A DNA stretch of 64,000 nucleotides from an uncultured Gammaproteobacteria bacterium (GCA_964573695.1 CAZNKB010000002.1:44302-108301); one strand, 5' to 3'. Shown: positions 1,101-21,307, counted from the stretch's first letter. Program-made: numbers and translations. The notes: a model not told the origin generated them from the sequence alone.

Positions 1101-1318
1101 GTATGCCTTTCTTCGCCCGAATAAGTAAAAAATAACCCCGCCAAGCGGGGTATATTTTTTCCCTACTCTAGGCAAATCATCCCGCCTCATTGGCGGACTC
1201 GTTGGGGCACCGCGGTCTCATTGACTCGGTTGCCGGGTGGATCATAAAGCGAGAGCTTTCCCCACCACTCTTGATTTATTAACTTGTCATCTACAGTACT
1301 CCTGTGCCTTACGTATTG

Positions 1319-5849: not shown

Positions 5850-6026
5850 ACGTTTCACCTCCTTCCGCTTTTTCCAAAAAGAGTATGGCGCGATATCAAT
5901 AGATACACAATGCATAAAGGATATGTACAGCATAAACAGACGGCCAAAACATCGTACATATGCCCCAAAGTCAGGCTATCTCCCCCGGAGTACTGAGCCG
6001 TAAATCGATATGCTATAGTAGAACGT

Positions 6027-6377
6027 ATGAATGACACGAAAAACGAGCATGTGCCGCCATTTGTACAATCCGATGATTTACCGGGTCCGCACGAGTTCCC
6101 CGAAGGAGACGTCGGCGACCAGCTCAGGGTAGCCAAAGTAGCAGAGCATCGGCGAAAAGAACTCCTCAAGCAACACGAGCGGAAAGAAAACCCGGGTGAC
6201 ACAATGCGGCGTATCATGAAGGAATCCGCACGAATAGAGGAATTGCGTCCAAAGCCCTCCGTCCAGACCGTCTTTGTGGCAGAAGCCAAACCGGATCCGG
6301 TACATCACGAGTTTGACCGCAGAGAAGATCCTTCTGCCACTCTCCGCAAAATTTTATCCACTGCTAAACCCAAGTAG
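6027..6377 (+). CDS. Hypothetical protein (116 aa, charged)
   Basis: ORF followed by a hairpin terminator. No motif recognised. Confidence 0.5.
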   Translation: MNDTKNEHVPPFVQSDDLPGPHEFPEGDVGDQLRVAKVAEHRRKELLKQHERKENPGDTMRRIMKESARIEELRPKPSVQTVFVAEAKPDPVHHEFDRREDPSATLRKILSTAKPK

Positions 6378-6402
6378 GAATTCGTTTGTCCATATCGCCT
6401 TA

Positions 6403-6438
6403 CATAAAAAAAGCCCCACACGAAGTGGAGCTTTTTTA
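6403..6438. terminator. Bidirectional rho-independent terminator between the hypothetical gene and cspA
   Basis: A-tract, AGCCCCA...TGGAGCT stem (6/7 bp), T-tract. Reads as hairpin plus U-run on both strands. Confidence 0.5.
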
Positions 6439-6464
6439 GGCGATATTTCTATCACCGTGAGTTT

Positions 6465-6662
6465 TTATGCTCGTTTTACATTTTTTGCGCTTGGGCCTTT
6501 CGGACCGTCTACGACTTCAAACGTAACCGTTTCGCCCACTTGAAGTTCATCAAATGTGACGCCAACTAAGTCTTTGGAATGAAAGAACAAGTCTTTTGAC
6601 TCGCCTTCCCGTGCTATAAAACCAAAGCCTCTATCTGTTTTTGTTTTAATTGTGCCGTTCAT
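6465..6662 (-). CDS. cspA: Cold-shock protein (CspA family)
   Basis: MNGTIKTKTDRGFGFIAREG...KDLFFHSKDL...GETVTFEVVDGPKGPSA; RNP motifs of the CSD. Confidence 0.92.
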   Translation of the reverse strand: MNGTIKTKTDRGFGFIAREGESKDLFFHSKDLVGVTFDELQVGETVTFEVVDGPKGPSAKNVKRA

Positions 6663-6711
6663 AGGTATCTCCTTTCTGAACTCCTAGTATACCATATCTT
6701 TGGGGAAAGTA

Positions 6712-7686
6712 TCAGATCTGGGATGCGTTGAAGAACTCAATGAGGATTTTTTTAAAAGCCTTTACGCTTTGTTCGTCGTGGACCGAACCCGCAAATACCT
6801 TTTTACCCTGGGCCGTGAATATTTGGGCTGCCTCTTGGGCCTCCTTTTTGGTCACGAGATCCGTTTTGTTGAGGAAAACAATCTCGGGTTTCTCAAGGAG
6901 CGCCGGGTTAAACTCCCTAAATTCGTTACGCACGGTCTCATATGCCCGCAGGGGATTTTCCACGGTTATATCGATACAATGGACAAGTATTTTGGTCTTT
7001 TCTATGTGCTTGAGGAACTTGATCCCCAGGCCTATCCCACGCGAAGCTCCCTCGATAAGGCCGGGTATATCGGCGATTGGATAGGTACCAAACATCCCGA
7101 TCATCGGCTCGAGTGTGGTAAATGGATATGCACCGATTGCAGGGGTGGCATTGGTGAGTCTAGAGAGCAAGCTGCTTTTCCCGGCGTTGGGAAGTCCGAT
7201 AAGACCGATTTGTGCTATCAACCGCAGTTCCAGAAGGACGGTTTTTACTTCGCCTGCACCGCCAAGTTCCCGGTTTGTAGGAGCCTGATTGGTCGCCGAT
7301 TTGAATTTGAAGTTTCCGAAACCCCCCTTGCCCCCACGTGCTATGATTACGGGTTTATCTACCGACGAGATTTCCATGACACTGCCGCTATCCGCATCCG
7401 TCACGCGAGTGCCCAAAGGAACCTCAATGGTTATGTGTTGGGCGTTCTTCCCGAAGCCGTTATGTTTGGTACCGTGCCCACCGTTTTGCCCGACTACCTT
7501 TTTCTTGTACCGGAAATGCCGCAGGTCATTGACGTTTGTGGACCCCTGTATGAGGATGTCGCCGCCGTTGCCCCCATTACCACCGTCCGGGCCGCCGCGC
7601 GCTTTCATGGAGGTATGGGCAAACGTAGCCGCGCCATTGCCCCCGTCTCCCGCCTTTAAGATGATCGTCACGTTGTCTATGAGCAT
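6712..7686 (-). CDS. obg: GTPase Obg/CgtA
   Basis: Glycine-rich Obg fold (KAGDGGNGAATF, GGPDGGNGGNGGDI) plus G-domain GLIGLPNAGKSSLL. Confidence 0.93.
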   Translation of the reverse strand: MLIDNVTIILKAGDGGNGAATFAHTSMKARGGPDGGNGGNGGDILIQGSTNVNDLRHFRYKKKVVGQNGGHGTKHNGFGKNAQHITIEVPLGTRVTDADSGSVMEISSVDKPVIIARGGKGGFGNFKFKSATNQAPTNRELGGAGEVKTVLLELRLIAQIGLIGLPNAGKSSLLSRLTNATPAIGAYPFTTLEPMIGMFGTYPIADIPGLIEGASRGIGLGIKFLKHIEKTKILVHCIDITVENPLRAYETVRNEFREFNPALLEKPEIVFLNKTDLVTKKEAQEAAQIFTAQGKKVFAGSVHDEQSVKAFKKILIEFFNASQI

Positions 7687-7762: not shown

Positions 7763-9025
7763 TTATTTGGTCTCGTGTACAGTCGGAAGCTTCTTGCCTT
7801 TAAACAGCACGCCCCAATCGTTAATTTTCCCGTTCTCGCCCGCCGGGGGATTGATCCGTGAGGCCTGTAGGACATAGACGACCGGATCGGGTACCTTGTT
7901 CTTTTCGCGGATTTTGTCTTCCCAAAGCTCCAACATGGCCAAGCCGCCACCCAAATAGATACGGGTTTCATTTTTCCCCGACCCGTACATCCGGACATGA
8001 GGATTGATCCTTCCTTCGCGGCCTGTGGATAGCTTGTCCCCCATGTCGCCAACGGTAAATAATCCGAAGTCTACCATTTCGGGCTGTGTGTTGATGAGAT
8101 AATTGGAGCCGATGGCTTTGGTACCCAACCCGTAAGAGAGCGCCCCCACACGCACGAGTAGCGGCACTTTGCGATCCAGCGCACGTTTGATCGCGATTGT
8201 AATACCCTGTGTGGATGCCACTGCCACGCGTATTTCCTCCAGCGTGTGCTTGTGTGGCTTACCCATAGCGTCGTCGACCTCCTGATCTCCGATTATGGTG
8301 GCCCCTGATGCCAGACAGTCGTCAAAACGCGTGAGTCGCGCGTATTCATAAAGCCCCAGGCGTTTGCGTACCGCTGTGGCTCCCTTGGCAGAAAATCCTC
8401 CGAGACAATCGCTTACTGCCTGACGGTATCGCTGTTTCTTTTCGGCAGTCATGTCGGAATCATTGCCAAGAGTCGTAAGCTCACGCATCACCGGCGACAG
8501 GGAGCCGTTTCTGATTTCGATGATAATCTTACCTTCGTCGTCATTTTTGATCGCCCGCATAACGGGAATCTCTTCCTGGGGAGACACAATTTGGGCCGAA
8601 TCCTGTGAAGATATCGCCAGTACCGCCTCACGGTCGGTGTACAACCTACCGTTACCGTCTTCGCAGACGAAATTCAGACTTCTCAGGCCTTCGATAAACT
8701 TTTCGGCTGACAACCGTGTCCCTTCAATCGTCTCGACAAGCAGCGGCCCAAATAATACCTCTGCGTCTCCCGTATTGGGTTTGCCGTATTTTTGGGCTCC
8801 GTGCCACTGCTCCGGGATGCGTATGGTTTCTCCGTCTCCCGCAACTCTGATACGCACGTTTGCCGGTTTCCACTGGTCGTTAAAGTGGGCAAATATCTCC
8901 GGCACGGATATGTCCCGAAGGGATTTGCTCAGCTCTCGTGCCGTAGGCGGCTCCGGTGGGCGTGTAAAAATTTCGGTGAGATGTGAGGCTACATGAGGAG
9001 CGCGGCGTGGTGATTCTATACCCAT
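7763..9025 (-). CDS. Conserved hypothetical protein, 420 aa, family not identified
   Basis: Long ORF of native composition. Tested mentally against RuBisCO-like, thymidine/AMP phosphorylase, HMG-CoA reductase and TldD/PmbA with no convincing match. Confidence 0.7.
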   Translation of the reverse strand: MGIESPRRAPHVASHLTEIFTRPPEPPTARELSKSLRDISVPEIFAHFNDQWKPANVRIRVAGDGETIRIPEQWHGAQKYGKPNTGDAEVLFGPLLVETIEGTRLSAEKFIEGLRSLNFVCEDGNGRLYTDREAVLAISSQDSAQIVSPQEEIPVMRAIKNDDEGKIIIEIRNGSLSPVMRELTTLGNDSDMTAEKKQRYRQAVSDCLGGFSAKGATAVRKRLGLYEYARLTRFDDCLASGATIIGDQEVDDAMGKPHKHTLEEIRVAVASTQGITIAIKRALDRKVPLLVRVGALSYGLGTKAIGSNYLINTQPEMVDFGLFTVGDMGDKLSTGREGRINPHVRMYGSGKNETRIYLGGGLAMLELWEDKIREKNKVPDPVVYVLQASRINPPAGENGKINDWGVLFKGKKLPTVHETK

Positions 9026-9798: not shown

Positions 9799-10068
9799 CT
9801 ACGTACGGTAATAATGCGACTTCCAGTAATTTTTAAAAAACGGCAGCGTCAGCGTAGACAGAAAGAATCCTACCGTAGGGATGACCGCATTGATCCACGG
9901 CTTATCAACCTCAATGACGTACATATAGAGGCTTATGGACACGTACGTAAAAACCATAAGGATCACTTTCCGAAACAAGCTCGTTTCCCATGATTTGTCG
10001 AGCTCGACAGAGGCGTTTCGTTTTTCGATTGCGCCAATTCGCTGCTCCAACTCCGTTATAGAAGACAT
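9799..10068 (-). CDS. Small putative 2-TM membrane protein (89 aa)
   Basis: C-terminal part of a long track ORF, starting at ATG 10066-10068 (MSSITELEQRIGAIEKR...). Two hydrophobic helices. The upstream part of the track ORF is antisense to the DUF1801 gene. Confidence 0.4.
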   Translation of the reverse strand: MSSITELEQRIGAIEKRNASVELDKSWETSLFRKVILMVFTYVSISLYMYVIEVDKPWINAVIPTVGFFLSTLTLPFFKNYWKSHYYRT

Positions 10069-10186
10069 GATGAGATTATAACAATCGGAAAACGCGTGTA
10101 CAAACGCATGAAGGTGATCGCTGATATTTGACAACGACACACATTCACACTGTAATATTACGTACAATAGAAGAAAGGACGTACGT

Positions 10187-10618
10187 ATGAAAACCACCAG
10201 CAAAAAGATCACAGGATTTACCGACGACGAACGCGCTGCGATGAAGGAGCACATCCTGGAACTCCGGGCGGCCGCACCAGGCCAGGACGGGGAAAAAGCC
10301 GTACTTGGCAAAATCGCCCAAATGCCGGAACCGGACCGGGCTATGGCCAAACGTCTCCACACGATAATAAGAACAAATGCACCGTCACTTACGCCAAGAC
10401 TCTGGTACGGGATGCCAGCGTATGCCAACAAAGACGGCAAGGTCGTTTGTTTCTTCCAGGGAGCGAGCAAATTTAAGGCGCGGTACTCCACACTGGGATT
10501 CAATGACTCGGCGATGCTCGATGAAGGCGCCCTGTGGCCGACAGCCTTTGCGCTCAAGGAGCTAACGAGCTCCGTAGAGACCACTATCGCCAAGCTCGTG
10601 AAAAAAGCAGTGAGCTAA
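10187..10618 (+). CDS. DUF1801 (YdhG-like) family protein, 143 aa
   Basis: AAAGGA SD 9 nt upstream. Sequence resembles YdhG/DUF1801 small proteins (…[16 protein letters not shown]…[10 protein letters not shown]…). Confidence 0.55.
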
Positions 10619-10737
10619 AAGACGAGACAGTTACACTCCTGAAGTACAACAACTTCGCACATGGGAAAAATACATAGCAATGCGCGTGATTTGGTAGAGC
10701 GTAGATACGAAATTCGTACGCTTTATAAATAAGGGTA

Positions 10738-12087
10738 TTATTCGTATCTTCGACTGTCCTCAATAATATGTTTAATTATCTCAATCTTGTCTTTTGTTAA
10801 ATCGATTGTTTCCTTCATGCTTTCCCACCACATTGCTAATGATATGGCGCTATATATTGACGTCAACGTTTCGTATGATCCAATTCGTATTCTAGATTTA
10901 TGAGATACTAGATTTCTATATTTTCTAAGTTCTTTAAGGTTCTCGTTTATTATTTTTGGGAAAATTAGGTTTGCCCCAGAACTGTTGAGGTTCGAAATGC
11001 TGATGTCTAACATAGATTTTTGGTGGTTAGTATAGTTAATTGATTCTCGGATAAGATCAAATATTTGATTATGTTCATGTGCACTTTTTATCTTTGTTTT
11101 TTTGGCTTCTTCAAGTTTTTTGTATAAATCCTCTAAATTGTATTTTTTGAATGAGTTAGTTTTTAGTATGCTGCTGGTTTCACGACCTAATAAGCTATAC
11201 AAATCTCCGAATGATGCCTCTCTTGAACAAGCCTTTCTAAATAAGGTTTCGTAAATTTGGGTGAGGTATTCTTCTGCAATAATTCCCGAGTCGGATATAG
11301 AGTATTTATATTCCCTATCGAAGTAGTTTTTGATAGATGCTTCGATTAACTTATTTAGCCTTTTATCTTCGAGAATATGCTTATGTAAATAATTTAGTAC
11401 CTTAAAATAAGGAAGAAGGATTTTGTTGTCAGGTGAAAATACTAGCTGTAGTTTGAAGTTGGTAATTTTGCCAATTTTGATTAAAAACTTTGCAAAATTT
11501 TCAAGACCTTCCTTTTCAGCCGAAAAAAATATAATTTTTTGATTTTCACTGCCAGGGATAGGGAATAGTTCTAAAAATATTACATAGCTCTCTTTAAGTT
11601 TAAAAACGCCCCCTTTTCTGCTAATGTAATCAGAAAAATTATTATAATAAAGGTTGTCTTTGAATAGTTGGAAAGCTTCTGAGTAGTTCTTTTTAATATA
11701 CTTCTTGTTGATTCTTTTTAAATTCTGTCGAGCGACAAATTCCTCAACTGGAGAAATTTTCTCTTCGTTTACATCTTTAAGAATCGAGTCTTCAGATGAT
11801 TCACAACTAATCTTTCCGTTCACAAGATATCTGAATAGGATAAAAATTGACTCAATATCCCAAAATGCTCGAGATAAATACTTTTCATTAACTGGATCAG
11901 ATTTTATACGTCCTCGTTTTTCGGTTTTTGAAAACCTCTTTAATTGTGTTGTTAAATCGTTTTGTAAGTACTCTGTTATTCCTTCTTTCTTCAAGTAAGT
12001 AATATCCAAAAACCACATTCCTTGTTTTGTTGGATATTTTAGATAATTAATTAACTTTTCTTGTTGTTCTTTATTAAGTGTATTCAT
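10738..12087 (-). CDS. Hypothetical 449-aa protein with a C-terminal HEPN-like Rx4H motif (possible Abi-type RNase toxin)
   Basis: AT-rich ORF. The C-terminal helix ...NLKELRKYRNLVSHKSRIRIG... fits the HEPN Rx4-6H consensus. The N-terminal 380 aa is unrecognised. Confidence 0.65.
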   Translation of the reverse strand: MNTLNKEQQEKLINYLKYPTKQGMWFLDITYLKKEGITEYLQNDLTTQLKRFSKTEKRGRIKSDPVNEKYLSRAFWDIESIFILFRYLVNGKISCESSEDSILKDVNEEKISPVEEFVARQNLKRINKKYIKKNYSEAFQLFKDNLYYNNFSDYISRKGGVFKLKESYVIFLELFPIPGSENQKIIFFSAEKEGLENFAKFLIKIGKITNFKLQLVFSPDNKILLPYFKVLNYLHKHILEDKRLNKLIEASIKNYFDREYKYSISDSGIIAEEYLTQIYETLFRKACSREASFGDLYSLLGRETSSILKTNSFKKYNLEDLYKKLEEAKKTKIKSAHEHNQIFDLIRESINYTNHQKSMLDISISNLNSSGANLIFPKIINENLKELRKYRNLVSHKSRIRIGSYETLTSIYSAISLAMWWESMKETIDLTKDKIEIIKHIIEDSRRYE

Positions 12088-12202
12088 ATTAACTTACAAA
12101 AAAACTGCCCGTGAGGGCAGCTCGTGTAGTATACATCAAAACAATTATTTAACAAACTAATCATGTCATGTTTGGCGTGGCAGCTCTACAGAATCTACTT
12201 AT

Positions 12203-12247
12203 GTACTCCTGCCGGATGAATAGCAGCGCTAAGAAGCGCTCCGAACC
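12203..12247. repeat. att-like direct repeat copy 1: tRNA-Glu 3'-end fragment plus extension
   Basis: GTACTCCTGCCGGATGAATAGCAGCGCTAAGAAGCGCTCCGAACC is about 90% identical to 14585-14631. Followed at 12268-12296 by a palindromic hairpin flanked by A- and T-tracts. Confidence 0.6.
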
Positions 12248-12352
12248 CGCCTTAAAGCGAGGTTCATCGTCGTGAGGTACTAAAAACCGGCACCGGGCCG
12301 GTTTTCTTAGTACAGGTGTTGGGACGAAATTGGAACGACTCTTACTAGTCTC

Positions 12353-12949
12353 TTATAACGAATTGACTAGCATTTTTAATTTTGTAATATTTCTACAATA
12401 ACTGAAATAGTTTAATTCTGTCACCCTAAATGTGTCTGAGGATATTTTTGCATTTCTATTTCTAAAATTTAATGTTAAATCGTCATTATATGAATATTGC
12501 TTCTTTACTAGAATATCAATGATTTCATGAAATTTTCTATTGCGACTATATTCTGATATTTTATCTTTTAATATCGAAAGTAAGTTACTTTGAGCTCTCA
12601 GCTTTAGGATAATTTTGTTCGCCACTAATTTTGTTAGAATTTTATCTTTTAAGAAAACCTCTTCGACACCACGATGCAATTCACTAAGATCTGACTCAAA
12701 TTTCACACAGTCAGCTATTAAAATATCCTTCTCCATGCGTTTATTATTAATTTTTTTATCAAGATAAAAGGGAATATAAATAGCTATAAAAAATGTTAGA
12801 AGGAAGCTGGCTATATCACCAACAGCTAATTTAGTATCAAAAGTTAAATAAGGGAAGTCTCTTATTACAACTCCGAGCGCAATCCCTATTAGAAGAAAAA
12901 GAAGGGTTATTAAAACTTCAGCACTAATAAATCCTGTACCACTTTTCAC
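12353..12949 (-). CDS. Membrane protein, 198 aa, with two N-terminal TM helices and a helical cytoplasmic C-domain. Third gene of the cassette.
   Basis: GTG start overlaps the stop of the upstream gene (GTGA). Hydrophobic segments ISAEVLITLLFLLIGIALGVVI and IASFLLTFFIAIYIPFYL. Confidence 0.6.
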   Translation of the reverse strand: MKSGTGFISAEVLITLLFLLIGIALGVVIRDFPYLTFDTKLAVGDIASFLLTFFIAIYIPFYLDKKINNKRMEKDILIADCVKFESDLSELHRGVEEVFLKDKILTKLVANKIILKLRAQSNLLSILKDKISEYSRNRKFHEIIDILVKKQYSYNDDLTLNFRNRNAKISSDTFRVTELNYFSYCRNITKLKMLVNSL

Positions 12950-13290
12950 TGTGTATTAGTTTCGTCAATTATGCTTAATATAGAAGTGATCAAAAGAGGC
13001 TCATCATTACTTATTAATTTAATTTTTTCTTTAATTTTATTCTTGTCTTTATACTCTTTTGTTAATCTAGTAAAAACTTCTGAGGTGAACGAGGAAGCAT
13101 AACCAAAAGTTCCATCCAAATCTAGATTTAATATCTTAAATTCATCATTCCATACCAAATCAACTTTTGGTTTAAGAACGTCTATAAAGAAAGCCTCTCC
13201 AGAATTAGGTCCATCAGACCTATATCTTGCTCCAGGGTATTTACTAAAATCAGTTGCAATTTTAACCGTAATTTCTTCAATCGAAGTCAT
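12946..13290 (-). CDS. Small STAS-like (DUF4325-type, anti-sigma-antagonist-like) protein, 114 aa
   Basis: ATG at 13288-13290 lies 1 nt after the TAA of the upstream gene. ...ILNLDLDGTFGYASSFTSEVF... parallels the SpoIIAA DLSGVxFMDSSG phospho-Ser loop and matches the DUF4325 pattern. The track ORF adds 31 spurious N-terminal residues. Confidence 0.6.
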   Translation of the reverse strand: MTSIEEITVKIATDFSKYPGARYRSDGPNSGEAFFIDVLKPKVDLVWNDEFKILNLDLDGTFGYASSFTSEVFTRLTKEYKDKNKIKEKIKLISNDEPLLITSILSIIDETNTQ

Positions 13291-13291
13291 A

Positions 13292-14365
13292 TTAAGGCAC
13301 CAACTCCCAATAGTACATTGTGCCATTAAACATAGCACCAAGGGACTCAACTGTATCAGGCATATTATACCCGATCTTAGCAATTACATCATTACTCAGC
13401 ATAGTAAAGTGTTTTATTTGTTGATCTGATTTAACCCACTTGTATATGTTATATAAACCATTTCCTCTCTCCTCCAATTTTGTTGATGATCTATTAACTC
13501 CTGAAAATATTTTAACTAATGTAGCGCGATTGTCGGTAAGATTAATGACTGACTTAAAAAATGCGCTAAGGAGATTACGCTTGTATTTTTCTTCAAGGGA
13601 GTCAAAAATCCCAATACCTAAATCTAAAAAGCAAAACTTAGTTATTTTTGTTTCAGGCTCTTTATAAGCTAATAACCACCAGTTATATATTTTAATATTT
13701 TTATCTGGACTAGCATGGTTCCAACTATTAGACATGCACTCGATCAACATTGTGTAACTCTTCTGTCTCATGGGATCAACTTCTCCGAATGTGTGGTGGA
13801 CTGCCGACTCGACAATTTTTCCTGCTAATTCCGACTCAACTTGTTCTTTTGTAATGCGATGGATAAGTTTGTCTACATACTCCTGATCGGGGTTATAGTC
13901 TTTATTTTGAGATTTTACAAAATCAAAAAATCCTGATCTTGCAAAAACCTCTCTGATTTTTGCATCTTTTGGTGAAAAACCTTGCAGTGGTGTGTTACTA
14001 GTACAACTATCATCATTTATGAAAGCACAAAGATATGTAATAGTCTCAGGACCCATCACAACGACGTCTTTTAAGTCAAAAATAACAGGTGTTTTATTGC
14101 GTAAAAGATTTTTTGCATGTTGGAAAAAATTAATAACAATAAGCGGATCATTAAGTAGAGAAAATGTAGTCGGGGCTACACAATTTTCATGATCACTTTT
14201 TTGAGGGTGATCGACAAACTTCTTTACTCTAGCCCTATTAACTTGCTTGCTTAAATTCTCATACCTCAATTTTTTCCTTAATAATTTTCGTTCTCTATTA
14301 TGGTGCGCCTTCCTGATAGGGGAACGTTTAAGAAATTCGCGAAATTTATTTCCTCTTTTTTTCAT
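13292..14365 (-). CDS. STAS-domain / GHKL (HATPase_c) ATPase fusion protein (about 357 aa from ATG 14363-14365), anti-sigma-factor-kinase-like
   Basis: STAS: VIFDLKDVVVMGPETITYLCAF ... FSPKDAKIREVFARSGFFDFV, compare SpoIIAA IVLNLEDLSFMDSSGLGVIL ... ISPAVKRLFDMSGLF. GHKL boxes: N-box ECMSNSWNHA, G1 FLDLGIGIFD, G2 RGNGLYNI. The track start (TTG at 14527) translates GC-rich palindromic att DNA, so ATG 14365 is preferred. Confidence 0.65.
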   Translation of the reverse strand: MKKRGNKFREFLKRSPIRKAHHNRERKLLRKKLRYENLSKQVNRARVKKFVDHPQKSDHENCVAPTTFSLLNDPLIVINFFQHAKNLLRNKTPVIFDLKDVVVMGPETITYLCAFINDDSCTSNTPLQGFSPKDAKIREVFARSGFFDFVKSQNKDYNPDQEYVDKLIHRITKEQVESELAGKIVESAVHHTFGEVDPMRQKSYTMLIECMSNSWNHASPDKNIKIYNWWLLAYKEPETKITKFCFLDLGIGIFDSLEEKYKRNLLSAFFKSVINLTDNRATLVKIFSGVNRSSTKLEERGNGLYNIYKWVKSDQQIKHFTMLSNDVIAKIGYNMPDTVESLGAMFNGTMYYWELVP

Positions 14366-14390
14366 ATTAGCTTTGTAATCTATCAAATGG

Positions 14391-14399
14391 ATTATATCA
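14391..14399 (-). promoter_or_regulatory. Extended -10 element (TGATATAAT) for the cassette operon
   Basis: Reverse complement of 14391-14399 is TGATATAAT, about 26 nt upstream of ATG 14365. Confidence 0.3.
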
Positions 14400-14584
14400 T
14401 CGGGACAAAATACGTTATTAAGGAGCGCCGCCTCTTGATGCGCGTCAGGGGTGAGTCCTCGAACCCGCGACAGCCCTTGACGCGCATCCGTGTTCCATAA
14501 TTGTTCTAGAGGGAGGATGCTTTCCAAGGGAAGCCCGGATTTGGTTTGAATTAGCTTTACACCTCGGAGGTGTAGGTACCAGGA

Positions 14585-14631
14585 GTACCCCCTTGCCGGA
14601 TGAATAACAGCGCAAAGAAGCGCTCCGAACC
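14585..14631. repeat. att-like direct repeat copy 2: tRNA-Glu 3'-end fragment plus extension
   Basis: GTACCCCCTTGCCGGATGAATAACAGCGCAAAGAAGCGCTCCGAACC. The first 17 nt match the 3' end of the intact tRNA-Glu at 14776-14792. Confidence 0.6.
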
Positions 14632-14658
14632 GGATTTGGTTTGACTACAAACCACTCA

Positions 14659-14693
14659 CCAGCACTAATGCTCGAAGACTCGCAAAGTGCTGG
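14659..14693. repeat. Hairpin element H1 (CCAGCACT...AGTGCTGG), paralogous to H2 at 14906-14950
   Basis: 8-bp perfect stem between the shared flanks CACTCA and ACTGCG. H2 has CCAGCAGT...ACTGCTGG, a compensatory C:G to G:C change that preserves pairing. Confidence 0.4.
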
Positions 14694-14736
14694 ACTGCGA
14701 ACCGGTAAACCGGTTCAAATCGCCAAGCGAATATTC

Positions 14737-14771
14737 ACAAAAAAATCCGGCGACATGCCGGATTCTTTTTG
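14737..14771. terminator. Hairpin terminator immediately downstream of tRNA-Glu
   Basis: AAAAAAA-TCCGGC-gacat-GCCGGA-TTCTTTTT. Bidirectional geometry. Confidence 0.5.
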
Positions 14772-14775
14772 TGAG

Positions 14776-14849
14776 TACCCCCTGCCGGATTCGAACCGGC
14801 GATTCACGGGCTGAAAACCCGTTGTCCTAGGCCGCTAGACGAAGGGGGC
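14776..14849 (-). tRNA. tRNA-Glu (anticodon TTC)
   Basis: Reverse complement GCCCCCTTCGTCTAGCGGCCTAGGACAACGGGTTTTCAGCCCGTGAATCGCCGGTTCGAATCCGGCAGGGGGTA. Cloverleaf with G1-U72 and anticodon loop UUUUCAG. Confidence 0.85.
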
Positions 14850-14905
14850 AATATTCACTTGTTAACGAATCCGGCAAGCCGGATTGCCGAGATTATTCGG
14901 CACTC

Positions 14906-14950
14906 ACCAGCAGTAAGTCTCGCTTCGCTTGCTCCACTCATCAACTGCTG
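14906..14950. repeat. Hairpin element H2 plus tRNA-Glu 5'-like fragment (GCGCCCCCTTCGTTGCCGG at 14985-15003 on the minus strand)
   Basis: See H1. An additional partial copy of the tRNA-Glu 5' end lies at about 14980-15003. Confidence 0.35.
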
Positions 14951-15122
14951 GACTGCGCCTCGATTCCGATGTTACCGGGGACCGGCAACGAAGGGGGCGC
15001 TACTACCAAGTATTGTACCAAATATCAGGGACAAAAAAAATAACGCCCGAAATCTGTACCAAACAGCACTCCGCATATTTGCGGACTACGTGTTGGCCCA
15101 AAAAGGGCGTTATACCATATCG

Positions 15123-15539
15123 TCAATTGTCCCCCCGAATAATATTCGCTGACCATTTCATGAGCATACCAAACACTGCAGATATGATGACAGGTTTGAT
15201 AAACTGCATGACGGAAAATTGTATAAACCAGGCATTCCTAGCAGTCTCAGTAACATCTGCCTGGAGCGCTACGGGAACACCGTATAATAAAATCGGCCAT
15301 AGCGCGGCGTTAACACAGACAATAATCCACGACCACACGCCGTAGTCAGCCGCCAAAATAAACGCGGCGATGACTGCGACAATCAATTGCAACAGTATGA
15401 GAAATTGATAGTCCGGTGGCTCTGCTGCTATGTTATACGCAAGTATTCCGACAGGCGGGCCGATGCTGACTATGAACAATAAAAGAAATTGATTTATCTT
15501 TTTCTTGTGTTTCTTTGGTTTCCATTTGTTGACTGGCAT
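15123..15539 (-). CDS. Hypothetical polytopic membrane protein (alternative start at 15581)
   Basis: Lys-rich N-terminus followed by 4 hydrophobic helices. Confidence 0.5.
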   Translation of the reverse strand: MPVNKWKPKKHKKKINQFLLLFIVSIGPPVGILAYNIAAEPPDYQFLILLQLIVAVIAAFILAADYGVWSWIIVCVNAALWPILLYGVPVALQADVTETARNAWFIQFSVMQFIKPVIISAVFGMLMKWSANIIRGDN

Positions 15540-15819: not shown

Positions 15820-17085
15820 ATGGAACGAAGCCCGGAACCCCTACCGAAACGGCGATACGAATCCCCACTTCACCTCACCTGGGAAGTCAAAGACCCGGTC
15901 AAATTTACCGAGCTTGAGGACGTCGTCACAAAGCAACATAAACTCATGACGAACCCTCCCGCCGTATTTCGGGGCGGAGGTGTATTCTCCCCGACTTCAA
16001 AGGATTTGGCGCTTCCCTATCGTCATTTTCTCGCTTCGGAGCGCCCTTTTGTCGTCATGCCGGTAACGACGGAAGCAGGCGGCAAGCTTACGGACGTCAT
16101 CCACTTCCCGACGTCTACGGAAGAATTGAGATTCGATGCCAATCTAGCGGCGTATAAGCAGCACCTCGGAGACTATGTTTCGGGTCACTGGAACAAAGAA
16201 GGTATGTCACCTATCCCGAAGACGACTGATATCACCACGCTTCCTGACGGACGCTATGTGACGACGGAGGAATACCGCGGCTATACCAAAGGCATCGGCA
16301 AAGGCCCGGGAGCTCTTGGTATCCATGAGCTGGATATCCAGCATGTTACACCCGACGATATGCGCCATATCGTACGGACACTCAGCAGCGCCACTCCTAG
16401 CTCCAGAGACTTCTACAGTTGGATAAGAGAAAACAACCGCGTATTGCCGGAGGAAAGTTTACTCAATCCCGCTAACCCCAAGACGGCACTGCGCGGACAG
16501 GAATGGTGGTCTTCGCCCGGAGCCCCGCAGGAAACGAGATCCCAGGAACTCGCCAAACAGCTCAAACCCCTGGAAAAGGATTTCCATGCGGTCGATCCGG
16601 CTATGGATCCATACCAAAAAATTGTGACCCTCATCGAGAACAATATGCAGATATTTCTTCATCAGAACGGACAGGCGGATCACCCTGAGCTCGTCGCAGA
16701 GCCGGTCGTCGTCCACGGCGCGCTCTATCCGGATAACATACAATTGTCGCGCCAGAGAGGCACCCAGGTTCCCGACGTTACGATACTTGGCGGAGATCGC
16801 GCACACATCGGCGTACGGGGAGAAATGATCGACTGGCTAGTGACTGCCGCTGCAGAATCTCCCGCGCATCAAAAGGCCATGATTGAGGAATTCATCGCTC
16901 TTCACCCTTCCGAATCAGACAGGCGTGGGCTGGCGATGCACGTGCTGTACCGCTCACTCAAAGAAGCGCCCTGGTTTGCCAAACACCGGCCCTCGGCTTA
17001 CCGAAACCTCATCCGACTCAGTTACGATATCCTGGAAGGAAATGGTATCTGGAAGGACGTCAATACCCCATACAACGCCAAATAA
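15820..17085 (+). CDS. Protein-kinase-like / aminoglycoside-phosphotransferase-fold protein (421 aa) with a non-canonical catalytic loop
   Basis: VVVHGALYPDNI aligns to the APH/CHK catalytic loop HGDLHPGN, with D replaced by A. ...GEMIDWL... aligns to the IDWE metal-binding motif. Confidence 0.55.
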   Translation: MERSPEPLPKRRYESPLHLTWEVKDPVKFTELEDVVTKQHKLMTNPPAVFRGGGVFSPTSKDLALPYRHFLASERPFVVMPVTTEAGGKLTDVIHFPTSTEELRFDANLAAYKQHLGDYVSGHWNKEGMSPIPKTTDITTLPDGRYVTTEEYRGYTKGIGKGPGALGIHELDIQHVTPDDMRHIVRTLSSATPSSRDFYSWIRENNRVLPEESLLNPANPKTALRGQEWWSSPGAPQETRSQELAKQLKPLEKDFHAVDPAMDPYQKIVTLIENNMQIFLHQNGQADHPELVAEPVVVHGALYPDNIQLSRQRGTQVPDVTILGGDRAHIGVRGEMIDWLVTAAAESPAHQKAMIEEFIALHPSESDRRGLAMHVLYRSLKEAPWFAKHRPSAYRNLIRLSYDILEGNGIWKDVNTPYNAK

Positions 17086-19031: not shown

Positions 19032-19475
19032 ATGAATGACCAACTCTCAAGTGAGCCAACACAAACTTCCGACACAGCAAGTGCCGACACAGTACTGGAA
19101 TTAGAGTCAATGATCAAAAATTCCGTTGCGACGATAGACCGCAACAAAACCGAGCTCAAAAAACTCAAAGAGATGCTCGAAAGCGCTCTTTTAAACGACG
19201 AGCCCTACCGCCTAGCGAGCGAAAAAACCAAAGAAGCCGCCAAGGAAAAAGGCAAAGCGAAAATGAACGTCATGCAAAACCCGGCAACCAAACAAATCGC
19301 AGACAAAGTCAAAGACATGACCCAGGAAAACAAAGATCTCGTTTCCGCACAATCCGAATACCTTCGCGAATACGCGAGGCTTTCGGGAACGAACGAGATC
19401 GAAGGCGAAGACGGCGAAGTAAGAGAAATTATCTACGTCGCTAAATTGGTCAAAAAGGCCAAACGAAATTCATGA
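19032..19475 (+). CDS. Hypothetical acidic coiled-coil protein (147 aa), translationally coupled (ATGA) to the downstream glycosyltransferase
   Basis: ORF; the stop overlaps the start of 19472. Confidence 0.55.
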   Translation: MNDQLSSEPTQTSDTASADTVLELESMIKNSVATIDRNKTELKKLKEMLESALLNDEPYRLASEKTKEAAKEKGKAKMNVMQNPATKQIADKVKDMTQENKDLVSAQSEYLREYARLSGTNEIEGEDGEVREIIYVAKLVKKAKRNS

Positions 19476-21307
19476 AACCCAATCGGCCCACAGTGGGCAA
19501 ACCGCCAAACTCACCGAGACTACCTTGGTGGTATTTTGCATTCGCGGCGGCTTTTCTCATACTCGCGACTTTTTTCCGGATTTGGCTTCTCGATCGGATC
19601 CCCACGGGTATCGTCGGGGATGAACTGGATTATGTGCTGAATGCCAAGGCGATCTATCACACCGGCGGCAGCATCATTACGAAAGACTGGTCCCCTCTCT
19701 CTCTTACTACCGTTCCCGATGAAATTCCCAAAGCGGAATTTCCCTATGTCATAAGTCTGCCGTTTGTAGGCCCGTTTGGCCTTTCGCTATTTACCGCACG
19801 CGTAGGATACGCCATAGTGAGCGTCCTCTATGTCCTTCTCGTCGCTTTTTGCGCTGCTGTATTTTTTTCTCCCTGGGTGGGGCTTACTGCCGGATTTATG
19901 GCAGCCATAAATCCGTGGAGTATTTATTACGGCAGGACGGCCTACGATGTCCCGATCGCCATAACCGGCTACATTGCAGCTCTTGTTATCCTCGCCAAAT
20001 GGAAAGGTCCCAAGCTGCTCCTGGCTCTTATCCCGCTCTTTATCGCGTTTTATAGCTACATAGGCACCAAAGTACTGTTCCTTCCGTTCGTGATCGTGTC
20101 GGTAGCCGGCGTGTGGCTCACCATACAAAAGCGGCGGGAGACTATATGGCTTGCCATTGTGGGAATCGTAGCGACGTGCATGTTCGGATATTTCGTCGTG
20201 CAGTTGCGTACCCTCGATGCCAACGAACGGGTCAACCAGCTGTTTACGCCATTTAACCAAACGGTGGTGAACGACGTAGACGGTCAGCGCCGTATGACTC
20301 TTGCGTCACCGCTTACCCGGATTTTTGCCAATAAACCCGTCGTGTATACCAAGACCGCACTTATCAAATTTTTTGGAGCATTTTCCCCCTCGATATTATT
20401 TACCAACGGGGAGGGAATCGCGACATTTTCACTCTGGGAACACGGACTGTTTTATCCCGTAGACGCGTTGTTTTTACTCATCGGCATCGGCGTATTGTTT
20501 GGTTCCTCACCCTCGCTGCTTGTATTTTTTGGCATCCTTATCGCCCTCTCTACGCTTCCTTCTGTGCTCTCTACCGAAGGCACGACCTACGTACACCGCT
20601 CGTCGCTTATGTATCCCTTGCTCACGATACTTATAAGCTACGGCATCGTATCTTCGGCAGAGCGTATCAGGAGTTCCTGGCGCAAGTGGTTTGTAGGAAT
20701 TACCATAATCATATACCTTGTCGCGGTCATCAACTTTTCGTATCTGTATTATTTCCGGTTCCCCTATTACAACTCCGAAGCATTTGGTCTGAGTCAGCGC
20801 ATCTATAGCCGGTATATGACCCTCGCCAACGAAAAAGGGATCCCCGTCATAAATATTTCCAGTTCTTCGGTCGGATATTTCCGGAATTTTATTTTCTACA
20901 ACAATATCCCGTCTCAGGAGACTATTTCTGCTATCCGCAAGGCGTTCGAAGACAAATCCTTTACCTGGGGGCTGTCGTCTTTTTCGGACAGCTGCCCGAC
21001 GACTGCCGATATACGTTCCGGCGACACCTCCTATATCCTTTCCGATACATCGCCCTGCAAAGAATTTTTCATCAAAAAACCCATGCTCGCGATCCCGACA
21101 CTCGCCGACGGGGGTTCGCTCTATATGATTTTTAACGACCGCGTCTGCGGACAATACGCACTGTCCAACTACCCTTCGGGATTTACGATAGGCGATTTCG
21201 ACGTGGAAAAGCTTTCGGAGAAACAATTTTGCGAGCGATTTATCATCCGCTACAGCCAGCCGCTCTACATGCCTCAGGACAAAAACGGCACCTGGGTCAC
21301 CCCGTAA
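19472..21307 (+). CDS. PMT/ArnT-family (GT-C, GT39/GT83-like) membrane glycosyltransferase, 611 aa
   Basis: About 11 TM helices. Periplasmic-loop DE motif (IVGDELDYVLNAKAI) typical of dolichyl/undecaprenyl-phosphate-sugar transferases. Confidence 0.8.
   Translation: MKPNRPTVGKPPNSPRLPWWYFAFAAAFLILATFFRIWLLDRIPTGIVGDELDYVLNAKAIYHTGGSIITKDWSPLSLTTVPDEIPKAEFPYVISLPFVGPFGLSLFTARVGYAIVSVLYVLLVAFCAAVFFSPWVGLTAGFMAAINPWSIYYGRTAYDVPIAITGYIAALVILAKWKGPKLLLALIPLFIAFYSYIGTKVLFLPFVIVSVAGVWLTIQKRRETIWLAIVGIVATCMFGYFVVQLRTLDANERVNQLFTPFNQTVVNDVDGQRRMTLASPLTRIFANKPVVYTKTALIKFFGAFSPSILFTNGEGIATFSLWEHGLFYPVDALFLLIGIGVLFGSSPSLLVFFGILIALSTLPSVLSTEGTTYVHRSSLMYPLLTILISYGIVSSAERIRSSWRKWFVGITIIIYLVAVINFSYLYYFRFPYYNSEAFGLSQRIYSRYMTLANEKGIPVINISSSSVGYFRNFIFYNNIPSQETISAIRKAFEDKSFTWGLSSFSDSCPTTADIRSGDTSYILSDTSPCKEFFIKKPMLAIPTLADGGSLYMIFNDRVCGQYALSNYPSGFTIGDFDVEKLSEKQFCERFIIRYSQPLYMPQDKNGTWVTP

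Follow-up and report, generated by a model that had tools for sequence, protein, structure and literature searches.

A HEPN-type protein family with an unassigned N-terminal domain, and a member encoded on a small islet at a tRNA-Glu-linked variable site

Introduction

Many immune systems use HEPN nucleases as effectors, with Cas13, Csm6, RnlA, PrrC, and HepS among the examples. The superfamily was delineated by Anantharaman et al. 2013 (PMC3710099), who placed the Arg and Asn of its motif at the C-terminal end of a helix and the His at the opening of the following loop. A second acidic residue, typically within Ex3[KR], lies in the N-terminal helical hairpin (PMC3710099). HepS, carried by the Gifsy-1 prophage, is a single-protein HEPN abortive-infection system which senses a phage tail-tip protein and cuts tRNA anticodon loops, thereby providing an experimental precedent (PMC13043305). 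Here we analyze a gene for a 449-residue protein with a C-terminal HEPN-type domain. It lies within a 64,000-nucleotide stretch of DNA from an uncultured Gammaproteobacteria bacterium (GCA_964573695.1 CAZNKB010000002.1:44302-108301; hereafter the window), where an earlier note, made from the sequence by itself, had singled it out as an island protein. While the superfamily and its architectural logic are already known, neither this family nor its N-terminal domain and motifs can be found in Pfam, NCBIfam, PADLOC 2.0, PHROGs, or the source annotations. Based on sequence and structural modeling, the protein is probably (at roughly 0.6) a stand-alone, self-inhibited HEPN RNase which would act in abortive infection or defense.

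Results

A protein family with a conserved set of predicted catalytic residues

The gene and its principal parts are as follows.

10738-12087, minus strand: coding sequence of the 449-residue HEPN-family protein (stop codon 10738-10740; residues 4 to ~443 covered by the alignment of homologs)
11365-12087, minus strand: N-terminal domain, residues 1-241, alpha/beta, with the motifs YLxNPTxxGxW and FSPEExxFxPY (AlphaFold2 model and conservation)
10741-11364, minus strand: C-terminal HEPN domain, residues ~242-449, into which a helical segment is inserted at ~293-368
10900-10917, minus strand: predicted catalytic motif R391-N392-L-V-S-H396 (Rx4H); R in 70, N in 69, and H in 70 of 71 members
11236-11250, minus strand: E280-T-L-F-R284, corresponding to the Ex3[KR] motif in the N-terminal hairpin of HEPN domains; E280 in 67 and R284 in 69 of 71 members

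Family members were collected by an exhaustive HMMER scan of 1.84 billion representatives, with the family counted as clusters at 50% identity. At E<=1e-3 the scan returned 190 proteins, of which 90 had E<=1e-30. The majority were 440-490 residues long, alignable from query residue ~4 to ~443, and 25-35% identical over their full length. A word-indexed search returned only the protein's own NCBI entry with the query, and only that entry (P0001) and P0115 with a 71-sequence profile. Such a search is weak here because the AT-rich sequence, rich in Lys, Asn, and Ile, swamps the word filter, making the HMMER scan necessary. All named homologs are annotated as "hypothetical protein".

Conservation was scored across the 71-sequence family alignment. 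RNLVSH (residues 391-396), the motif highlighted in the earlier note, proved to be the sole Rx4-6H in the protein. By itself, Rx4H is weak evidence, as 27% of shuffles of the protein contain it (RNx3H appeared in 2%). The motif gains meaning because of its conservation across the family and its position in the fold. Invariant or near-invariant C-terminal positions were E272 (retained in 70 of 71 members), E280, R284, R391, N392, H396, E406, W420, and W421. Their N-terminal counterparts were Y15, L16, P19, G23, and W25 within YLxNPTxxGxW, and S218, P219, and Y227 within FSPEE..PY.

Two members stood apart from the rest. In the metagenomic member P0082, RYYLAASD replaces R-N-x3-H, such that R, N, and H are all lost. 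The copy in a Methanocellaceae metagenome-assembled genome (L013 5507-6948) is split into two overlapping open reading frames by a frameshift or an assembly error. Their sequences point to decayed or inactive copies.

Profile searches had been proposed in the earlier note as a check on the HEPN assignment. No Pfam, NCBIfam, PADLOC, or PHROG model reached threshold with the query, and no HEPN family in Pfam matched it at E<=1. Likewise, none of the 71 members reached a Pfam gathering score, the best match being HEPN_RiboL-PSP at E 5.5e-5; P0037, for example, scored 18.0 bits for this family (PF18735) against a cutoff of 28.4. The sub-threshold Pfam matches, on the other hand, were all to HEPN-type families and spanned the motif region: HEPN_RiboL-PSP (9 of 71), DUF4145 (4 of 71), and HEPN_Swt1 (3 of 71), plus HEPN_MAE_28990. 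Here DUF4145 is presumed to be HEPN-related. As no named HEPN family model reaches its gathering threshold, we consider this a distinct family within the superfamily. Sequence and model together support the protein as a HEPN superfamily member outside every named family.

Predicted fold of the HEPN domain

AlphaFold2 with the family alignment gave a confident model, with a mean predicted local distance difference test score (pLDDT) of 88.8 and a predicted template modeling score of 0.84. AlphaFold run from the single sequence, with no alignment, gave a pLDDT of 36. The family-based model contains the four-helix up-and-down core of HEPN domains. Helix 378-395 carries R391 and N392 at its C-terminal end, H396 is the first loop residue, and the loop leads to helix 404-427. 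E280-x3-R284 is placed in helix 260-283, providing the acidic residue of the HEPN hairpin. Between this helix and the motif helix is a helical segment (293-368), most of which is poorly conserved. The motif was thus modeled within a HEPN-like fold, and the C-terminal RNase-type domain first proposed withstood the refuting condition named in the earlier note, a predicted structure with the motif in a non-HEPN fold. A Foldseek comparison, suggested alongside the profile searches, returned nothing significant from PDB or BFVD.

N-terminal domain

The earlier note saw no recognizable domain in the N-terminal region, and none emerged at significance from Pfam, NCBIfam, PADLOC, PHROGs, PDB profile searches, or Foldseek against PDB and BFVD. 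PDB profile searches with either the whole family or its N-terminal half yielded only coiled-coil and designed-helix noise. In the AlphaFold2 model, the domain contains strands at residues 24-31, 161-163, 168-176, 183-189, and 211-216, with a large, weakly conserved helical insertion at ~37-146. The order of the core, beta-alpha-beta-beta-alpha-beta, is compatible with faint Foldseek matches to ACT/RAM-type ferredoxin-like domains (probability <= 0.44), which serve as a lead only. A weak PDB sequence match at residues 47-92, to the YTHDC2 YTH domain (E 0.15), was rejected because it maps to the helical insertion, where conservation is low, and is lost with the family profile.

Start codon

The 449-residue open reading frame with an ATG start was present as originally described, and an independent Logan gene call had the same length. 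The deposited NCBI entry is 426 residues long and starts at M24, dropping the invariant P19 and G23 together with Y15 and L16. Because invariant P19 and G23 precede M24, the 449-residue start is correct and the 426-residue annotation too short; judged by conservation, the public NCBI start of the gene is mis-annotated. The region cut off corresponds to 12019-12087 on the minus strand. The source sequence of the gene also occurs in run SRR14932511.

Distribution and gene neighborhoods of homologs

The family was patchily distributed over Pseudomonadota, Myxococcota, Acidobacteriota, Ignavibacteriaceae, Nanoarchaeia, and Methanocellaceae. Named homologs came from Ignavibacteriaceae, Nanoarchaeia, Pseudomonas sp. 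TH41, P. oryzihabitans, Pseudogulbenkiania, Acidovorax, Sorangium, Polyangium, and Pyrinomonadaceae, with further loci in Acidobacteriota and Methanocellaceae. The Pseudomonas sp. TH41 homolog is WP_201114693.1, and the P. oryzihabitans gene is located at 1,823,829-1,825,208 of CP021645.1. Searches of E. coli genomes, plasmids, and phages gave no match to the gene or island, and GTDB representatives gave none with the 449-residue query. In most loci the guanine plus cytosine (GC) fraction of the gene was lower than that of its flanks (e.g. 0.42 vs 0.6-0.7, 0.40 vs 0.52, 0.24 vs 0.35, and 0.43 vs 0.65). Such a pronounced GC deficit of the gene relative to its flanks, seen here and at the majority of the other loci, is a signature of horizontal transfer.

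Among the 12 loci with usable flanks, three were counted by hand as abutting known defense systems (DSR1, SPARTA-type, or AIPR). In Pseudomonas sp. TH41, a split DSR1 lies directly upstream (PADLOC 1e-51). In a Pyrinomonadaceae metagenome-assembled genome, TIR-APAZ and a short prokaryotic Argonaute (SPARTA type) lie directly downstream (7e-131 and 2e-200). In Sorangium, AIPR is located 1 kb upstream, and an integrase element is also present. Two further loci fall in a prophage or a Rep/transposase element. The first is an IMG/VR uncultivated virus genome (L016, UViG 643886068_000004), in which the member at 5917-7293 resides in a Mu-like prophage (Gp27, Mor, GemA, Mu transposase). It occupies a moron-like slot, typical of accessory genes, between mor/gemA and the late genes of the gp27/terminase region, in opposite orientation and with a GC of 0.43 vs 0.65 in the flanks. 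The second (L020) has a rolling-circle Rep and a DDE transposase nearby. PADLOC-DB 2.0 matched neither the query nor two homologs, and no conserved partner gene or antitoxin was found in the 12 loci.

A small islet at a tRNA-Glu-linked variable site

The gene is located in a variable region with the following landmarks.

10620-12207, no strand assigned: HEPN islet, 1.6 kb, low GC (~31-35% vs ~50% in the flanks), absent from L014
12210-12247, minus strand: direct repeat copy 2, upstream edge of the HEPN islet, where synteny with L014 resumes; the tRNA-Glu 3' end is copied within it
14594-14631, minus strand: direct repeat copy 1 (95% identity between the copies); the pair brackets a separate three-gene cassette
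14775-14849, minus strand: tRNA-Glu(UUC), anchor of the variable region

GC was 31-36% from ~10650 to 14550 (fully contained 1-kb windows), compared to ~50% in the flanks. To delimit the insertions we used a related genome, L014 (Logan ERR13763444), whose flanks are 82-90% identical at the nucleotide level. By BLAST against the window, L014 stays collinear as far as 10619, one base past the stop codon of a convergent DUF1801 gene, and its homology resumes at a single copy of the 38-nt repeat. On this basis the HEPN gene and its hairpin form a discrete islet (10620-12207). In place of the islet, L014 carries an unrelated 1.15-kb cargo (5909-7061) with open reading frames of 161 and 138 residues, neither of which matched Pfam. 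An MNT-like GS...DxD motif suspected by eye in the 161-residue protein was unsupported. Because L014 has different cargo where the window has the HEPN islet, this comparison identifies the interval from the DUF1801 gene to the repeat as a cargo-swapping hotspot between close relatives. By the same reading of the sequence, the three-gene cassette represents another insertion, independent of the first.

No repeat of 38 nt is expected by chance. The repeat holds a copy of the tRNA-Glu 3' end, ATCCGGCA(G/A)GGGGTAC, preceded by CCGGTTCG. The 3' end and T-stem of the tRNA are copied, and a 24-nt GC hairpin replaces the T loop. Downstream of the tRNA lies a second copy of part of its leader (14653-14699 vs 14901-14957). 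Repeat and leader duplication look like scars of serial site-specific insertions. A Pfam scan of the island open reading frames gave no integrase-family match, and none was seen nearby.

A terminator-type hairpin before the start codon

Two features precede the start codon.

12098-12123, minus strand: intrinsic-terminator-type hairpin followed by T7 (stem 12120-12115 / 12110-12105, loop TCAC, T7 12104-12098)
12128-12155, minus strand: sigma-70-like match TTGTTA-16-TATACT, a weak candidate promoter with 9/12 matches

The hairpin is as originally reported: a perfect 6-bp core stem, CTGCCC / GGGCAG, extending to 9 bp (12123-12102) when G-U and A-U pairs are counted. Its folding energy of -16.8 kcal/mol (z = -5.0) was not equaled by any of 200 shuffles. 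It was the top terminator-like site in a scan of 10000-15500 and is unique in the window. The distance to the start codon required correction, as the T run lies 10 nt, and the stem 17 nt, from the ATG instead of the reported 13 nt. With a GC-rich stem, short loop, and U tract, the element has the anatomy of an intrinsic terminator; termination itself is predicted. Because 10 nt leave no room for a promoter, transcripts of the gene must traverse the hairpin. The weak -35/-10 match stops 5 nt short of the hairpin, such that a transcript from there would start at the foot of the stem.

Neighboring cassette and other features of the window

The three-gene, low-GC cassette occupies 12248-14593 on the minus strand, flanked by the 38-nt direct repeats.

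13292-14527, minus strand: 411-residue protein of the cassette (phrog_3364, E 8e-34; no Pfam match)
12946-13383, minus strand: 145-residue DUF4325 STAS-like protein of the cassette
12353-12949, minus strand: 198-residue predicted membrane protein of the cassette

None of the three proteins matched PADLOC. N-box, G1, and G2 motifs like those of GHKL ATPases could be discerned by eye in the 411-residue protein, and together with the STAS-like protein it recalls, by analogy, an anti-sigma kinase with its STAS partner-switching protein.

Elsewhere in the window, a SAM-I/IV riboswitch match (1145-1282, minus strand) scored 41.6 bits against an Rfam gathering score of 41.1. L014 has a SAM (S-adenosylmethionine) synthetase gene in the syntenic neighborhood. 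Several backbone open reading frames, including those at 7763-9025, 15820-17085, and 19472-21307 (420, 421, and 611 residues), matched no Pfam family. The host lineage may be poorly characterized.

Discussion

The analysis establishes the family with its conserved residues, modeled fold, motif geometry, islet, and homolog neighborhoods, and from these we propose a model in which R391, N392, and H396 (Rx4H), together with E280 and R284 (Ex3R), would form a metal-independent RNase site of the HEPN kind, which yields 2',3'-cyclic phosphate ends. The N-terminal ~240 residues are presumed to be a sensor or regulator that keeps this site inactive until an infection cue arrives. On that cue, HEPN domains would pair up and cut RNA of the cell or the phage, either mRNA or the anticodon loops of tRNAs, stopping phage growth. 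The gene is the only cargo of the 1.6-kb islet at the tRNA-Glu-linked site. The hairpin would serve as an insulating terminator separating the gene from the neighboring cassette, and expression by read-through would probably be kept low.

Several observations weigh against this model. Some HEPN proteins are not nucleases, and the sensor role of the N-terminal domain is presumptive. The query copy is missing ~25-30 poorly conserved N-terminal residues present in most homologs. The family was not found in PADLOC 2.0, PHROGs, or BFVD, nor by tblastn of phage and plasmid collections. About half of the examined loci (L001, L002, L010, and L026) have only housekeeping or uninformative neighbors, and the apparent defense association is a hand count on 12 loci. 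Finally, the sigma-70-like match upstream of the hairpin was not above background as a promoter, with 21 such sites in the scanned region vs 16 +/- 4 in shuffles.

Alternative functions can be judged against the same evidence. The protein might be the toxin of a toxin-antitoxin module whose antitoxin went unrecognized (a small open reading frame, an antisense RNA, or an MNT-type protein encoded in trans), with a role in addiction or stabilization of the islet as opposed to dedicated phage defense. We consider this unlikely. None of the 12 loci revealed a conserved neighbor, no copy has an MNT or other nucleotidyltransferase beside it, and in the window the gene is wedged between the terminator and the convergent host gene, leaving no room for a partner reading frame. 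The conserved ~240-residue N-terminal domain would also be a more economical source of self-inhibition. A non-defense role is conceivable as well, since HEPNs also occur in housekeeping RNA-processing enzymes and in the non-catalytic binders Roquin, sacsin, and MtlR (PMC3710099). Here the protein would process or bind RNA, or be a regulator that binds DNA through its N-terminal part, while simply carried on mobile DNA. Housekeeping neighbors at several loci fit this role, as does a weak match of the family-consensus N-terminus to the helix-turn-helix family HTH_32 (E 0.004, below cutoff). However, that match is sub-threshold and partly in the non-conserved N-terminal extension. Non-catalytic HEPNs typically lose the catalytic set (PMC3710099), whereas here 67-70 of 71 members retain the residues of the full set (R, polar N, H, and Ex3R). 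A distribution this sparse, patchy, and AT-shifted, with cargo replaced between close relatives, is likewise unlike a housekeeping gene. A non-defense role therefore appears quite improbable.

The hairpin leaves more latitude. It could be a mere terminator of the upstream cassette, or of read-through from tRNA-Glu, with no regulatory tie to the HEPN gene, which would then be silent or expressed via rare read-through only. We regard this as a real prospect, at somewhat below even odds. Its canonical anatomy and folding energy are those of a terminator, and the 10 nt that separate the ATG from the T run cannot hold a promoter. In Pseudomonas sp. TH41, the DSR1 terminator lies ~45 nt upstream of the homolog, and no equivalent start-proximal hairpin is conserved at the other homolog loci. 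On the other hand, the 198-residue gene of the upstream cassette already ends in a terminator-like hairpin of its own (12277-12313, -18.6 kcal/mol), which is followed by the direct repeat, and the hairpin at issue lies within the HEPN islet, on the gene side of that repeat. The weak -35/-10 match 5 nt before it would place it at the 5' end of the mRNA of the gene, where it could be an attenuator or a 5' stabilizer. Instead of an insulating terminator, it may thus be a dedicated element of either kind.

A broader proposal may be made, though only tentatively and with the balance tilted against it. The family would be a new kind of single-gene immune nuclease common to bacteria and archaea (including DPANN-type Nanoarchaeia), in which an N-terminal sensor fold of a kind not seen before detects an infection cue directly and unleashes the HEPN RNase. 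It would travel as a minimal, integrase-less cassette swapped at tRNA-3'-end repeats and prophage moron slots. Should the protein be a true autonomous sensor-effector, its N-terminal domain would be a new infection-sensing module. Were it just another HEPN toxin, the gain would lie in correcting how the domain, the start codon, and the islet boundaries are annotated. In either case, ~190 sequence clusters (50% identity) that are publicly called "hypothetical" now have a concrete predicted catalytic site, and members in cultured Pseudomonas, Pseudogulbenkiania, and Sorangium strains are accessible to experiment. At the local scale, comparison with L014 reveals a small hotspot linked to a tRNA, in which close relatives carry unrelated cargo genes in place of one another.

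Comparison with known systems

Judged by weak Pfam signal, RiboL-PSP-HEPN (PF18735), DUF4145, Swt1-like HEPN, and MAE_28990-like HEPN come closest to the family. Abi-type and T4-defense HEPNs with N-terminal accessory domains are also among the closest (RnlA/LsoA, AbiA, AbiF/AbiD (Abi_2), AbiU2, and AbiV). The ~240-residue N-terminal domain of the family matches none of the described HEPN-associated domains in the libraries searched. HEPN-MNT modules have an adjacent MNT gene, in contrast to the family gene in the window and the 12 loci, and their toxins are about one-third the length of the family protein. By analogy of function, the nearest precedent is HepS. Its chain is 218 residues long and is described as a single HEPN domain protein (PMC13043305), with no detectable sequence relationship to the family, whose members are ~450 residues long and bear a large extra N-terminal domain.
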